Below, in pieces: positions 49,290-60,258 of a stretch of DNA of 64,000 bases (its first letter is position 1; each line of letters begins with the position of its first letter). Below the pieces are notes generated by a model that saw nothing but the letters and a program-made list of their open reading frames with translations, did no database searches and had not been told where the DNA came from. Source of the stretch: an uncultured delta proteobacterium (GTDB lineage: Bacteria > Desulfobacterota > Binatia > Binatales > Binataceae); contig CAVQEQ010000004.1 in the NCBI GenBank assembly GCA_963711565.1, forward strand, positions 1,088,001 through 1,152,000, read 5' to 3'. The translations under genes were made by a program, and so were the position numbers.

Positions 49290-49373
49290 AATTTGGGTTT
49301 TGTAGCTTAGTTCAAGGGTCCACCGCTATAGGACCGGCGCGATCAGCTGAGATCCCGCATGCATTCGAGCCTC

Positions 49374-49410
49374 TGTCATTCTAGAGCGAAGCTGCGTAGC
49401 GAAGAATCCC
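49374..49410 (+). repeat. GTCAT-type REP-like palindrome
   Basis: TGTCATTCTAGAGCGAAGC..AGCGAAGAATCCC. Confidence 0.5.
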
Positions 49411-49491
49411 GAATATTTCTTCGCGCCTGTCTCCACTATCTGTCACTGTGTTCCATTACTTACTAAATCCCAATATGAAAGATCGACCGAC

Positions 49492-50055
49492 ATGGCAGGT
49501 CCCTATTTTCAAAAGAAAAGCTGGCCGTCCTTTGTCTATCGAGGGACGACGCATGACCTAATCCATCTCAATGAATATGAGCTAGTAGTGGTAGATACGG
49601 GCGGCCACGAGCGCCGGATTGCTGTCACGTTTGGCGACCACTGTTTCACACGCGCTCCCACACCCGGCGATGATCCAGCGCTTGCCTACCGGGACAGCGA
49701 TCGCAGGCCAGGCAATTTCTGTTTCGTGCGCTACGCGTTAACTTTCGGCTTGCGGCAACACATCAACGATGCCGTTGTAGGTAGGGTTTGGAATGTGGAA
49801 GGGGACCATTTCGCGGCGGTGCCTGAAGTTGATTCCTCCGGCAAGCGCGTTTCCTATGGAATCATTTTTAGTCTTGACCGCGTTACTGGTTTACCGGTGC
49901 ATCTGCACATGCGCATCAAAACAGCCTACCCGATTAATCTAAGGCTTGTGACATTTGGCTCCGTACGATTTCTGCATCTGGTTGCTTTGCGGATGAAGGG
50001 CAAAAGACCGCAAAAAGATCACCAGCGCCGTCGGAAGGTCCCAAGAATTCGGTAG
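49492..50055 (+). CDS. Unknown 187-aa protein with basic C-terminal tail; candidate RNase-type toxin
   Basis: Clean ORF, visibly more A/T-ending codons than its neighbours; motifs HDLIHL, VTFGDHCFT, FCFVRY, KTAYP; tail RMKGKRPQKDHQRRRKVPRIR. Confidence 0.7.
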   Translation: MAGPYFQKKSWPSFVYRGTTHDLIHLNEYELVVVDTGGHERRIAVTFGDHCFTRAPTPGDDPALAYRDSDRRPGNFCFVRYALTFGLRQHINDAVVGRVWNVEGDHFAAVPEVDSSGKRVSYGIIFSLDRVTGLPVHLHMRIKTAYPINLRLVTFGSVRFLHLVALRMKGKRPQKDHQRRRKVPRIR

Positions 50056-50065
50056 TGAGAGAGCA

Positions 50066-50096
50066 ACAAAAAGAAATAGGCCCTTTCGGGCCTATT
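50066..50096 (-). terminator. Intrinsic terminator ending the candidate ncRNA
   Basis: Minus strand AAUAGGCCC-GAAA-GGGCCUAUU followed by UCUUUUUG. Confidence 0.8.
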
Positions 50097-50227
50097 CGAT
50101 TCCGCCTACGGCAGGAATCTCTGGGCGAACCTCTTTCCTGTTTCCAGGTATCAATCCCATCCGGGATTGACTTGGTTGTAAAACCAAGCGGGGCTGGCTA
50201 TGCGCACGCCCTTGTATCCAGCGATCT
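50068..50227 (-). ncRNA. Candidate ~160-nt structured small RNA convergent with the 187-aa gene
   Basis: Own promoter and terminator; six stem-loops (two GAAA tetraloops); possible GGGCG/CGCCC pseudoknot; no well-placed RBS/ORF. Confidence 0.65.
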
Positions 50228-50233
50228 CAGCCA

Positions 50234-50261
50234 ATTATATGCTTCTCCCAAGGAGCGTCAA
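50234..50261 (-). promoter_or_regulatory. Near-consensus sigma70 promoter for the candidate ncRNA
   Basis: Minus strand TTGACG (50261-50256), 16 nt, TATAAT (50239-50234). Confidence 0.7.
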
Positions 50262-50312
50262 GCTACAAATCGGCGCGGTCGTTGCCTTCACTCCGATCCC
50301 ATTGCGCAGCTG

Positions 50313-57896: not shown

Positions 57897-58143
57897 GGTG
57901 AGACCTCCTGAAGTGACGAAGGTGGAAAGCCGCTAGAGCTACAGTCGCACTATGGGAAAATCCTACTGAAAGAAAATTGTCGCTGTCAACCGTAACCTGC
58001 TGGCGTAGCGCGCGTAATCTTAGAAGAGAGTCAGCGTCTCGGTTGACAATGGACTTAAGGAATCGTTAGATCGAAATACTGAGCGAAGGATTTCTACGAC
58101 CAGCTGACACAACCGGGATTGAGTTCCCTGCAAGGAGGAACCG

Positions 58144-58470
58144 GTGGAATCCGATAAGCCCGCCATCCACAACAAGCTTAAAGACCGCCTTCGCACCATC
58201 GTCGGCACAAGCGCCAGCACAATCGTGCTCGCGACGACGATACTGAATGTGATCCCCGCAGACGCCAATGTCGCCGACGCGAATCCCGCCGGCACCCTCC
58301 AGCAACGCGTCGAGGGAGTGCGCCCCCAGGTTCAGGACGCGAACGCCAACCTGCAACAGCGGGGCGACTCGAACATCCAGCTGGCGTGGTGGCGCAATTG
58401 GCGCAACGGCGGATGGCGCGGATGGGGTTGGCCGAACTGGCACAACTGGCGCAACTGGGGCAATTGGTAA
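58144..58470 (+). CDS. GrrA/OscA-like RiPP precursor with Trp-rich WxN core
   Basis: AAGGAGG RBS; leader ending QLA, then WWRNWRNGGWRGWGWPNWHNWRNWGNW; directly upstream of the rSAM gene. Confidence 0.88.
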   Translation: MESDKPAIHNKLKDRLRTIVGTSASTIVLATTILNVIPADANVADANPAGTLQQRVEGVRPQVQDANANLQQRGDSNIQLAWWRNWRNGGWRGWGWPNWHNWRNWGNW

Positions 58471-58508
58471 ATCCGTAAGCCGCGCCTCGACGCTCGCGGC
58501 ATCGAGTC

Positions 58509-59687
58509 GTGTTCAAGATGGCTGCCGGCAATAGATGGCGAATCGCCGGGCCGCTCGAGCTTCTCGTCCTGCAGCCGACTCCGTTCTGCAATCTGGATTG
58601 CTCTTATTGCTATCTTCCCGATCGCGACTCGAAGCGCCGGATGTCGGACGCGACGTTGAATCGCGTTTTTCAATTCGTCTTTGCAAGCGGAATAGTTGAG
58701 CAGGGCTTCACCGTGGTGTGGCACGCGGGCGAGCCGATGGTGCTGCCGGTGTCGTACTACGAACGCGCGATTGAAATTGCGGCCGCGCATAATCCCGGCG
58801 GCTTGCAGGTTCGGCATTCGTTCCAGACCAATGGCGTGCTGATCGACGACGGGTGGTGCGATTTTTTCAAAGCGCATCAGGTGAACGTCGGCGTCAGCAT
58901 TGACGGACCGGCGTTTCTTCACGATCGCAATAGAAAAACGCGCAAGGGCGCCGCGACTCAGCATCGCGTGATGGAAGGCATCCGAAAGCTGCGGAGCAAC
59001 GAGCTGCCCTTCCACGTGATCTCCGTGCTCACGGGAGAATCACTCGACTACGCCGACGAACTGTACGATTTCTATATCGAGAACGGGATCCGGGAGGTCG
59101 CGTTCAATATCGAGGAGATCGAAGGGCCGCACGCCGCATCGACGCTCGGCGGCGCGGGCGTCGAGAATCGATTCCGGCGGTTCATCGGAAGATTTTTCGA
59201 TCTGGTCGCGCGCGACGAGTTGGCGTTGAGCGTGCGCGAGTTCGACTCGATGGTGCCGATGATTCTAGGCGGTAACGCGAATGAAAATAACTTTCCGCCG
59301 ACCCAGGAAAACTCGCCATGCGCGATATTGAGCGTGGACTGCGAAGGCAACTTCACTACCTACTCGCCGGAACTGCTCGGCCTCAAGAGTAGTCACTACG
59401 GCGATTTCGCGATAGGCAATGTGAATATCGACACGCTCGCGTCGGCGATGAACGGTGAGAAGTTTCGTCGAATGAGTAGTGATATCGCGCGTGGACTGAG
59501 TAAGTGCCGCGATACATGTGAGTATTACAGTTTGTGCGGAGGCGGCGCACCGGTGAATAAGTACTTCGAGAATGGATCGTTCGACTCGACCGAGACCATG
59601 TTTTGCCGCTTGAATCGCAAAGTAATCGTCGATGTGATCGTCGCGAAGCTGCAACACCCGATTGGCGTTGCGACGGACGCCGCCTGA
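58509..59687 (+). CDS. Cyclophane-forming radical SAM/SPASM maturase, GrrM/OscB family
   Basis: LLVLQPTPFCNLDCSYCYLP, VVWHAGEP, FNIEEIEG, YSPELL, SPASM CRDTCEYYSLCGGGAP.NK..E.G.F..TET.FC. Confidence 0.9.
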   Translation: MFKMAAGNRWRIAGPLELLVLQPTPFCNLDCSYCYLPDRDSKRRMSDATLNRVFQFVFASGIVEQGFTVVWHAGEPMVLPVSYYERAIEIAAAHNPGGLQVRHSFQTNGVLIDDGWCDFFKAHQVNVGVSIDGPAFLHDRNRKTRKGAATQHRVMEGIRKLRSNELPFHVISVLTGESLDYADELYDFYIENGIREVAFNIEEIEGPHAASTLGGAGVENRFRRFIGRFFDLVARDELALSVREFDSMVPMILGGNANENNFPPTQENSPCAILSVDCEGNFTTYSPELLGLKSSHYGDFAIGNVNIDTLASAMNGEKFRRMSSDIARGLSKCRDTCEYYSLCGGGAPVNKYFENGSFDSTETMFCRLNRKVIVDVIVAKLQHPIGVATDAA

Positions 59688-60258
59688 CGCGAAGTTCTGT
59701 GAAAATCCGCAACGCGCCGCGGTACCAGGGCCGGCTTCGCTGGCGGATCGTGTGCAGGTGCGAGATTCGACAGGATGGCGGGCAGCCAGCGCGGACGAGT
59801 TGGGGGCTATCTGCGCCGACGACGGCGACGTGTCGGTGATCGGCATACCGCGGCATTTGCTGGAGCGATGGTGGAAGCTCGCTGAAGCGGACCATATAAC
59901 TAAAGGGTTTGATGGCTATGGCCGCGAGATAGCCGAGTATTTCGTCTACAAAAACTGGCGCTTGACGGCTCCTGTCTTGATGGAGGTGGTGGCTGCCGGT
60001 GGTAAGCGCGATAAAGCTCTGATGCCCAGTCACCCGATGCGATTCGCCACCGGCGTCGGCACGCTGAGCGCGTGCATCAACCTTGGCGGCGAGAATGCCG
60101 CGATCGCGCTCAAGGCGGATTCTCGGCGGGTCCGGATAATACTCGAGCCCGGGGAGGGCTTGCTGATGCCGGCGGACGGCGTCCTCTTTAATCGATCGGC
60201 GCTCGGCGGAGCGGAACTGGCCGTCACGCTGTTGATCGGTTCGCTTGGGACTGAGTAA
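59662..60258 (+). CDS. RiPP-cluster accessory protein with cupin/2OG-oxygenase-like C-terminus
   Basis: Overlaps rSAM stop; CINLG....RIILEPGEGLLMP motif. Confidence 0.55.
   Translation: MALRRTPPDAKFCENPQRAAVPGPASLADRVQVRDSTGWRAASADELGAICADDGDVSVIGIPRHLLERWWKLAEADHITKGFDGYGREIAEYFVYKNWRLTAPVLMEVVAAGGKRDKALMPSHPMRFATGVGTLSACINLGGENAAIALKADSRRVRIILEPGEGLLMPADGVLFNRSALGGAELAVTLLIGSLGTE

Follow-up and report, generated by a model that had tools for sequence, protein, structure and literature searches.

What kind of genetic unit is formed by a 187-codon reading frame and a short transcription unit that runs towards it from the opposite strand? The question is raised by an islet in the window, by which we mean the whole stretch of 64,000 nt analysed here, where the initial annotation saw a candidate undescribed system of a protein and a non-coding RNA.

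The islet and its insertion site

Synteny delimits an islet of about 1 kb (49335-50310), slightly larger than the ~0.8 kb proposed at first, while the lower GC content described for it was found (0.445-0.595 across the islet vs about 0.6-0.7 in most flanking windows). It is flanked by a GNAT gene and by gspC, which are both minus-strand genes. The 187-aa ORF with its DHCFT, FCFVRY and TAYP motifs and basic tail is present at 49492-50055 (+) as first described, and so is the minus-strand unit consisting of a TTGACG-N16-TATAAT promoter, about 160 nt and a GAAA terminator, the U-tract of which ends 12 nt past the ORF stop. The features are as follows:

49335..50310, strand not applicable: entire islet; the insertion lies between the start of the GNAT gene and the stop of gspC, and the site is empty or holds unrelated genes in relatives
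49492..50055, plus strand: YjaZ/HtrC-family gene (Pfam PF27200), 187 aa, with a predicted RelE/BECR-like core at residues ~41-153
50234..50261, minus strand: sigma70-type promoter of the RNA gene; -35 TTGACG at 50261-50256, 16-nt spacer, -10 TATAAT at 50239-50234
50068..50227, minus strand: conserved ~160-nt non-coding RNA gene of SroH-like topology, convergent on the ORF, from covariance and homologs
50222-50218 with 50197-50193, minus strand: P1 stem GCUGG/CCAGC; within it lie an A-rich linker, the 5' strand of the predicted pseudoknot and a conserved UGnGnAnAG loop
50211-50207 with 50127-50123, minus strand: predicted pseudoknot helix GGGCG/CGCCC, from complementarity
50130..50192, minus strand: P2 helix CCC/GAGG, 3 bp, closing a three-hairpin domain; a conserved AAGAGG-UU junction and then the pseudoknot 3' strand follow
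50066..50097, minus strand: intrinsic terminator with a 10-bp stem, GAAA loop and U-tract; hairpin at 50097-50074

Fewer than 200 bp separate the GNAT gene from gspC in at least 23 of 46 congeners, and the others hold unrelated cargo; the junction is an insertion hotspot, a general accessory-gene spot. The cargo (L109-L124) comprises beta-propellers, DUF1993 with GNAT, Tad genes, IS110, HNH with DndB-like and LA2681-like HEPN genes. Nuclease domains occur in only 2 of the 16 other inserts at this junction, and a defence-island context is not supported.

Just upstream of the ORF, a sequence of ~45-55 nt at 49372-49427 recurs at many sites in the genus (85-95% identity); it resembles a small dispersed palindromic repeat and might be an insertion mark. 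Elsewhere in the window (58020-60258) a short peptide gene with a W/N/R-rich tail (58144-58470) adjoins a radical-SAM/SPASM-like gene (58509-59687), a pair that by eye resembles a RiPP cluster.

The protein belongs to the YjaZ family

The initial annotation had treated the protein as unknown. It belongs to YjaZ: the precomputed Pfam family PF27200, which carries this name in the Atlas (score 0.96), was found on the query and on all 73 close matches, and the query shares 29% identity over 170 aa with E. coli K-12 YjaZ/HtrC (pairwise E = 3e-6). An older Pfam release, which predates PF27200, gave no match to the ORF. HMMER retrieved 232 cluster representatives at E <= 0.001. Among 76 diverse YjaZ members H25, H50 and R80 are invariant, Y122 is kept in 74 and A145 is near-invariant, with S/T-A at 144-145. 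A selenoprotein idea for YjaZ-family genes was discarded, as the flagged TGA codons are natural stops.

A RelE/BECR fold had been guessed from the motifs. The AlphaFold model of the ORF product is confident (pLDDT 93.8), and a wide structural search with it returned RelE, BrnT, ParE, YoeB, HigB or CdiA RNase-fold toxins in the first 13 rows, the best of which covers residues 41-153 (Z 4.4, rmsd 2.8, 76 aligned). With a second AlphaFold model, of an E. coli-like member and built on nearly the same alignment as the first, the same RelE/BrnT/ParE/YoeB/HigB/CdiA families filled the first 16 rows (best row Z 4.5, rmsd 3.0, 74 aligned). The guessed fold is thus the top structural match of two models, with weak scores, since a Z under 8 lies in the range that the search tool calls a common arrangement. 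As these toxin-domain families top both rankings, we regard it as probable that YjaZ carries a RelE/BECR-like RNase core. Relative to RelE-type toxins, YjaZ has an extra N-terminal hairpin and a basic C-terminal extension.

Other searches returned little. With Foldseek nothing in PDB or BFVD matched at E <= 0.001; the top BFVD rows, below significance, were large phage polyvalent and MuF-type proteins. The nearest Atlas family with YjaZ left out was PBECR4 (0.75), which we take as a lead only. Among the structural rows listed there was no ToxN- or HEPN-type toxin except Cami1 at Z 3.0, a result that excludes nothing. A PDB sequence search, NCBIfam and PADLOC gave no match to the protein, and PHROGs gave two single weak ones.

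YjaZ-like stretches were also seen in longer proteins (P0080, P0167, P0200, P0211), namely a 323-aa fusion and three giants of 1533-5282 aa. The three giants, which have several weak YjaZ matches, are perhaps polyvalent phage proteins.

A structured RNA gene on the facing strand

The promoter of the RNA gene agrees with the consensus at 11 of 12 positions, and of the three matches in 4 kb (shuffle mean 1.2) it scores highest. From 5' to 3' the RNA consists of a conserved AGAKC leader, P1, the A-rich linker, GGGCG, the conserved loop and the P1 partner, followed by P2 around three variable hairpins, AAGAGG-UU, CGCCC, a hairpin and the terminator. The description of the RNA as mostly folded agrees with the stability of the 165-nt unit, which folds at -68.4 kcal/mol (z = -4.73) with none of 200 shuffles as stable. 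It should be noted that the minimum-energy fold misses the comparative core, namely the 5' stem P1, with a loop that may pair with CGCCC ~80 nt downstream, and the 3-bp P2.

We aligned 44 RNAs, in which 96.2% of the cells are paired vs 27-47% in slid controls, and two-sided changes occur at 26 of 44 pairs. The hairpins of the P2 domain covary at 16 of 17 pairs. P1 and P2 have one pair each with a two-sided change; in P2 there are two independent ones at column 37/106, and the closing pair of P1 is A-U in 25 and G-C in 18 of the 44 sequences. The GGGCG/CGCCC helix is paired in 97.7% of cells with zero two-sided changes, so the pseudoknot is without covariation support in the close clade because it is near-invariant there. 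G-U pairs outnumber A-C by 81 to 21, which places the RNA on the minus strand. Many unpaired bases of the core are invariant, both RNA ends are fixed across the 44 RNAs, and variation is confined to the hairpin stems and loops. The RNA structure is under selection.

Rfam gave zero families at gathering score on the whole window, and on the islet at E <= 10 the sole match by E-value was noise (E = 7.9); the Rfam scan proposed initially thus assigned no unrelated family to the RNA.

Three contigs of one soil metatranscriptome map to 50110-50214, one of them identical to the window, and the same metatranscriptome has zero contigs over the ORF. Such contigs indicate presence in an RNA library only, as ends, strand and level are not readable from them. 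The three stop near 50213-50214, in the A-rich linker, and near 50110-50114, and one contains adapter sequence; the stops near 50213-50214, in contigs that are related to each other, may reflect RNA processing or the way the reads were assembled.

Linkage of gene and RNA among close homologs

Close homologs were collected from 64 metagenome and 7 GTDB loci, and 51 of these hold an intact close homolog. By covariance-model match, the facing-strand RNA is present at all 51, in full at 49 and cut by contig ends at two, and at two of the 51 the RNA is displaced by insertions. The model was trained on 43 homolog RNAs and the window RNA, several loci being near-duplicates; the six informative GTDB loci outside the training (L087-L091, L093) scored 143-168 bits. 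Its only other matches in 470 kb at E <= 1 were four weak ones, each correctly placed behind a distant homolog. The initial annotation had asked for a covarying convergent RNA beside homologs, and it was found there with promoter and terminator.

The exceptions are few. Three loci (L051, L061, L062) have no downstream DNA, and L063-L065 are distant homologs with another RNA class. The sole close homolog with downstream DNA that is without the RNA is L092 (4001-4276), where the gene is truncated at 91 codons and no RNA lies nearby; all other partial or broken close-homolog genes keep it. In the family at large, frameshifted or split genes with the RNA kept are L045, L071, L095 and L135. A sigma70 promoter scoring at least 9/12 was detected in 39 of 54 loci vs 4 of 257 control windows, and in all 45 loci with a promoter score of at least 8, 6-7 nt separate the end of the -10 box from the RNA. 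Further, a locus found in IMG/VR by the RNA pattern alone also encodes a YjaZ homolog (39%). Protein-anchored sampling, as used for the close homologs, is blind to RNA-only loci.

Only 6 cross- or within-locus pairs were similar among 63 flanking segments from 33 loci. The flanks are thus almost all unrelated between loci, so there is no third conserved gene. The regions upstream of the YjaZ genes are likewise not conserved between loci. Ribosome-binding sites at <= -4 kcal/mol were found for 25% of 28 close homologs vs 21% in the background and 43% for the genome's long ORFs, a signal too weak to use. We conclude that gene and RNA travel together as one unit.

These data bear on two readings of the RNA. 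According to the first, it is a mere terminator region, or the gshA-gspC 3' UTR mentioned as an alternative in the initial annotation, beside an unrelated orphan gene. In the window genome gspC is indeed directed into the RNA gene on the same strand, but the RNA is absent at the same junction in relatives without the ORF and stands with its own promoter beside homologs in unrelated contexts. The comparative data refute this reading, and we leave it next to no probability.

According to the second, the yjaZ mRNA is silenced in a type I-like manner, either by convergent transcription or because its 3' UTR, made by read-through, pairs with the RNA, the protein not being bound at all. The tail-to-tail layout is strictly kept, as cis control would have it, and the terminator hairpin has no plus-strand U-tract, so that the mRNA may enter the RNA gene. 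On the other hand, an antisense RNA acting in cis can do without sequence conservation, whereas many unpaired bases of the core are invariant here; the RNA is complementary to the CDS or leader over no more than 8 nt, a 3' UTR overlap being possible; the protein is a predicted soluble 187-aa fold and not a small membrane peptide; and in L005, L019 and L048 the RNA is retained 730-990 nt from the gene behind inserted DNA. The initial annotation had set a classical type I system aside for want of overlap with the CDS. Type I antitoxins often overlap only 3' UTRs, so that argument is weak; the invariant core and the RNA kept at a distance are better grounds for the same conclusion. We consider control in cis improbable.

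Distant RNA classes and their predicted topology

The distant loci comprised 16 plasmid loci across the match lists, paralogs in the genus and four more genomes. By inspection, each of them has a convergent unit with a terminator; hairpin and U-tract were seen at all 16 plasmid homologs, in three Pseudomonadota genomes, in one SroH-type genome and in E. coli. The RNA sequence classes are unrelated between phyla while the predicted topology is kept, with 11 different complementary versions of the pseudoknot across the distant classes (among them GGGCG/CGCCC, CUGGG/CCCAG, GUGG/CCAC, CAGA/UCUG, CAGG/CCUG and GCGAG/CUCGC). The junction before the pseudoknot 3' strand reads UU, CU, A or U across classes. 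Two of the plasmid loci, both enterobacterial, match Rfam sroH.

To describe the topology we used a descriptor, which leaves the AAGAG-type junction unscored. With a first, loose form the RNA strand could not be told from the sense strand, and the form was therefore tightened after the results had been seen. In 24 of 31 loci the final form fitted best at the homologous knot, and only 14 of the 31 gave p <= 0.05; the loci missed were L070, L074, L075, L081, L082, L083 and L134. The combined p of 7e-7 over 14 class representatives is optimistic, as these loci had also served to tune the descriptor, and for this reason the result is good but not independent evidence. L132-L135 were read by eye beforehand and do not count as held out.

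The yjaZ-sroH locus of E. coli

In E. coli K-12, yjaZ (htrC, b3989) lies tail-to-tail with sroH (b4691, Rfam RF00372), a 161-nt sRNA on the opposite strand whose 3' end is beside the yjaZ stop codon, the layout of the window. The two RNAs are unrelated in sequence: the sroH model misses the window, where the Rfam threshold of at least 80 bits is not reached, and the window-RNA model misses sroH. SroH fits the predicted topology with GGAUG/CAUCC, CAGA/UCUG and CGC/GCG. The only structure in the Rfam sroH model is the terminator hairpin, and its matches are limited to E. coli and the two enterobacterial plasmid loci. All parts of a yjaZ-sroH-type module as we define it here, that is a convergent RNA, promoter, terminator and predicted P1/pseudoknot/P2, are present in the window.

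The E. coli pair behaves as one islet, at least 80% of which is covered in 3718 of the 3741 genomes with any match, out of 5426, so that ~69% of complete E. coli genomes carry the module; near-complete copies of sroH and its promoter are present in 3736 genomes and of yjaZ in 3415 of 3738, all counts being inflated by related strains, which are not independent. The gene decays before the RNA.

Both yjaZ and sroH are annotated as of unknown function, and the literature found, as far as its available text goes, treats SroH as a stand-alone sRNA. Deletion of sroH in MG1655 is reported to be viable with only envelope-stress sensitivity, according to PMC5389530 and PMC13572404, which cite the original study. 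SroH binds kbl mRNA in vitro according to the accessible part of PMC6172242, processed forms exist according to that of PMC5389530, and in the Grad-seq data excerpted from PMC7498339 SroH peaks in the light fractions 3-4. SEC-seq supplements gave no match in 12 of 13 files. The part available of PMC5864857 lists htrC in a table of ColE1 plasmid cargo, and that of PMC3318445 reports patchy loss of sroH in E. coli. In the literature covered, which excludes most subscription journals, no paper joins YjaZ/HtrC and SroH as a system and none names sroH and htrC together; nor does the main text of a 2026 ncRNA-mining preprint, in the portion accessible, mention the pair. The pair yjaZ-sroH would be a long-known but unrecognised member of the module. 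The word undescribed in the initial annotation accordingly holds only for the pairing of gene and RNA; the protein family (YjaZ/HtrC) and one RNA (SroH, RF00372) were already catalogued, separately.

The published observations on SroH suit a further reading, namely that the RNA acts in trans or is selfish and that YjaZ is a dedicated, non-toxic protein that processes or stabilises it. The binding of kbl and the envelope-stress effect of the deletion (PMC6172242, PMC13572404, in the parts available) would fit such a role, as would the processed forms (PMC5389530, likewise in part) and the better conservation of the RNA than of the gene in E. coli. RNA classes that are unrelated between phyla with topology kept are unfit for a shared mRNA seed, the spread is patchy and plasmid-borne, and no orphan RNA was found in 46 congeners or by distant BLAST of plasmids. 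We accordingly give this reading little weight.

In a fourth reading the module is an active RNP, the RNA being a cofactor, scaffold or trigger-sensing switch and not a simple inhibitor; the complex would have a specific RNA target or be set off only by a phage or stress signal. The same gene-RNA linkage and covariation suit it, ToxI-type repeats are smaller and simpler than this RNA, and a viable sroH deletion fits an RNA-dependent protein (PMC13572404, available text). However, there is no variable guide-like segment, both ends being fixed and variation lying in hairpin stems and loops, and decay of the gene with the RNA intact suits an antitoxin better than a cofactor. An active RNP seems to us rather unlikely, though worth keeping in mind.

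Distribution and mobility

Searches of GTDB contigs with a single protein gave nothing and a broad alignment gave no usable pattern; a close-alignment pattern gave the 7 loci. A draw of 200 genomes from the own phylum had no relatives, and a second phylum draw had them in 4 of 400, the centre genome apart. The YjaZ protein pattern had no match in 50,697 phage records (INPHARED) and found no relatives in IMG/VR, where the RNA pattern found the one locus. PADLOC gave zero family matches among the 76 members. The RNA class of the window was not found in the 46 congeners searched.

Outside the window, the same genome holds a second YjaZ copy (L067, 761152-761691), 31% identical and with its own convergent RNA of ~125 nt, which is of another sequence class than the window RNA. 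Copies related to it occur in three congeners (L068-L070, L095), one of them frameshifted with the RNA kept. The module is a mobile insertion of ~1 kb. Its distribution, with the family on 559 plasmids, any YjaZ gene in only 3 of 46 congeners and two unrelated copies in the window genome, is typical of addiction modules.

Plasmid copies (L073, L074, L079, L083, L072) often lie beside parA/parB or rep, or near type II TA pairs (L074, L081), positions also taken by stability modules. On two betaproteobacterial plasmids (L078 1193-1798, L081 1166-1798) the YjaZ gene and a helix-turn-helix gene upstream of it overlap, which may be a variant with three parts.

Comparison with known systems

The toxIN, cptIN and tenpIN systems, in the accessible text of PMC12283969, resemble the module in the logic proposed for it, an endoribonuclease inhibited by a pseudoknotted RNA with A-rich loops, and in a spread over plasmids and chromosomes. 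In these systems one operon holds the toxin and, upstream of it, tandem repeats and a terminator (PMC12283969, same text), whereas the window RNA lies downstream as one copy and is read from the opposite strand under a promoter of its own. The layout is therefore not that of a classical type III system, in agreement with the initial annotation. Pfam, NCBIfam, PADLOC and PDB sequence searches did not place the protein in the ToxN/CptN/TenpN sequence family.

AbiF, one of the few RNA-neutralised toxin families, is HEPN-type and linked to Cas13 ancestors and thus to the origin of Cas13. The window protein by contrast is a YjaZ with a RelE-like predicted core, and no Abi_2 match was found in Pfam or PADLOC. 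The likeness lies in the principle: AbiF/Abi_2 (AbiD/F) with its ncRNA (RCd22) is described, in the available part of 10.1101/2025.04.15.648962, as a stand-alone toxin to which a structured RNA, encoded in cis, binds directly and so neutralises it. That RNA has two repeated abiF motifs (same source and part), whereas the window RNA is a single predicted knotted unit.

The top structural neighbours of YjaZ residues ~41-153 are BECR-fold type II toxins (RelE/ParE/BrnT) and PBECR domains, at weak scores. A type II system has a conserved adjacent protein antitoxin gene, which the YjaZ loci lack, the flanks being unrelated and the islet having one ORF. OMEGA-like RNA-guided nucleases have a variable guide at the RNA end, in contrast to the conserved ends of the 44 RNAs.

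HDV-like ribozymes consist of a 5' stem, a pseudoknot strand, an optional hairpin, an inserted domain and a closing pseudoknot strand, with a catalytic C in J4/2 and a P1.1. This helix order is similar to that predicted for the window RNA. We nevertheless rejected such a ribozyme, as the window RNA has neither the conserved catalytic C-A-A junction, the position reading UU, CU, A or U, nor the P1.1/L3 motif; Rfam ribozymes gave no match to the module RNAs.

Proposed function

On balance we lean towards a toxin-antitoxin pair that resembles type III but is laid out convergently and has a new toxin fold, in which the RNA neutralises a predicted nuclease. The YjaZ-family protein would be a RelE/BECR-fold ribonuclease toxin, and the facing structured RNA, kept in excess by its strong promoter, would bind and neutralise it. 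The knotted core and the conserved single-stranded purines may dock on a predicted basic face of the enzyme made up of H50, R80, Y122, the S/T-A-Y strand and the basic tail. When RNA synthesis stops, be it by loss of the module or by transcription shut-off through phage or stress, the nuclease would be freed and could cut cellular RNA, resulting in addiction or abortive infection. The RNase fold, the toxicity, the direct binding and the release upon RNA loss are thus what we infer. Against a toxin speaks the sroH deletion in E. coli reported to be viable, which a lethal pair does not predict unless yjaZ is near-silent.

In its widest form we give an even chance to the claim that YjaZ-SroH is a widespread RNA-controlled nuclease family, the first case of a RelE/BECR-fold toxin with an RNA antitoxin, arranged tail-to-tail, with the topology of a pseudoknot scaffold kept and its sequence rewritten at least ten times. 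If this is true, an E. coli y-gene and an orphan sRNA would gain functions, and hundreds of plasmids would carry a plasmid-addiction or anti-phage module. The class of RNA-neutralised toxins, of which few families are known, would be widened by a RelE/BECR-based one with a new protein-RNA scaffold. As the module is found in so large a share of complete E. coli genomes and on so many plasmids, it may affect plasmid persistence or phage resistance, and with yjaZ/htrC and SroH two old unknowns of E. coli become testable in K-12.
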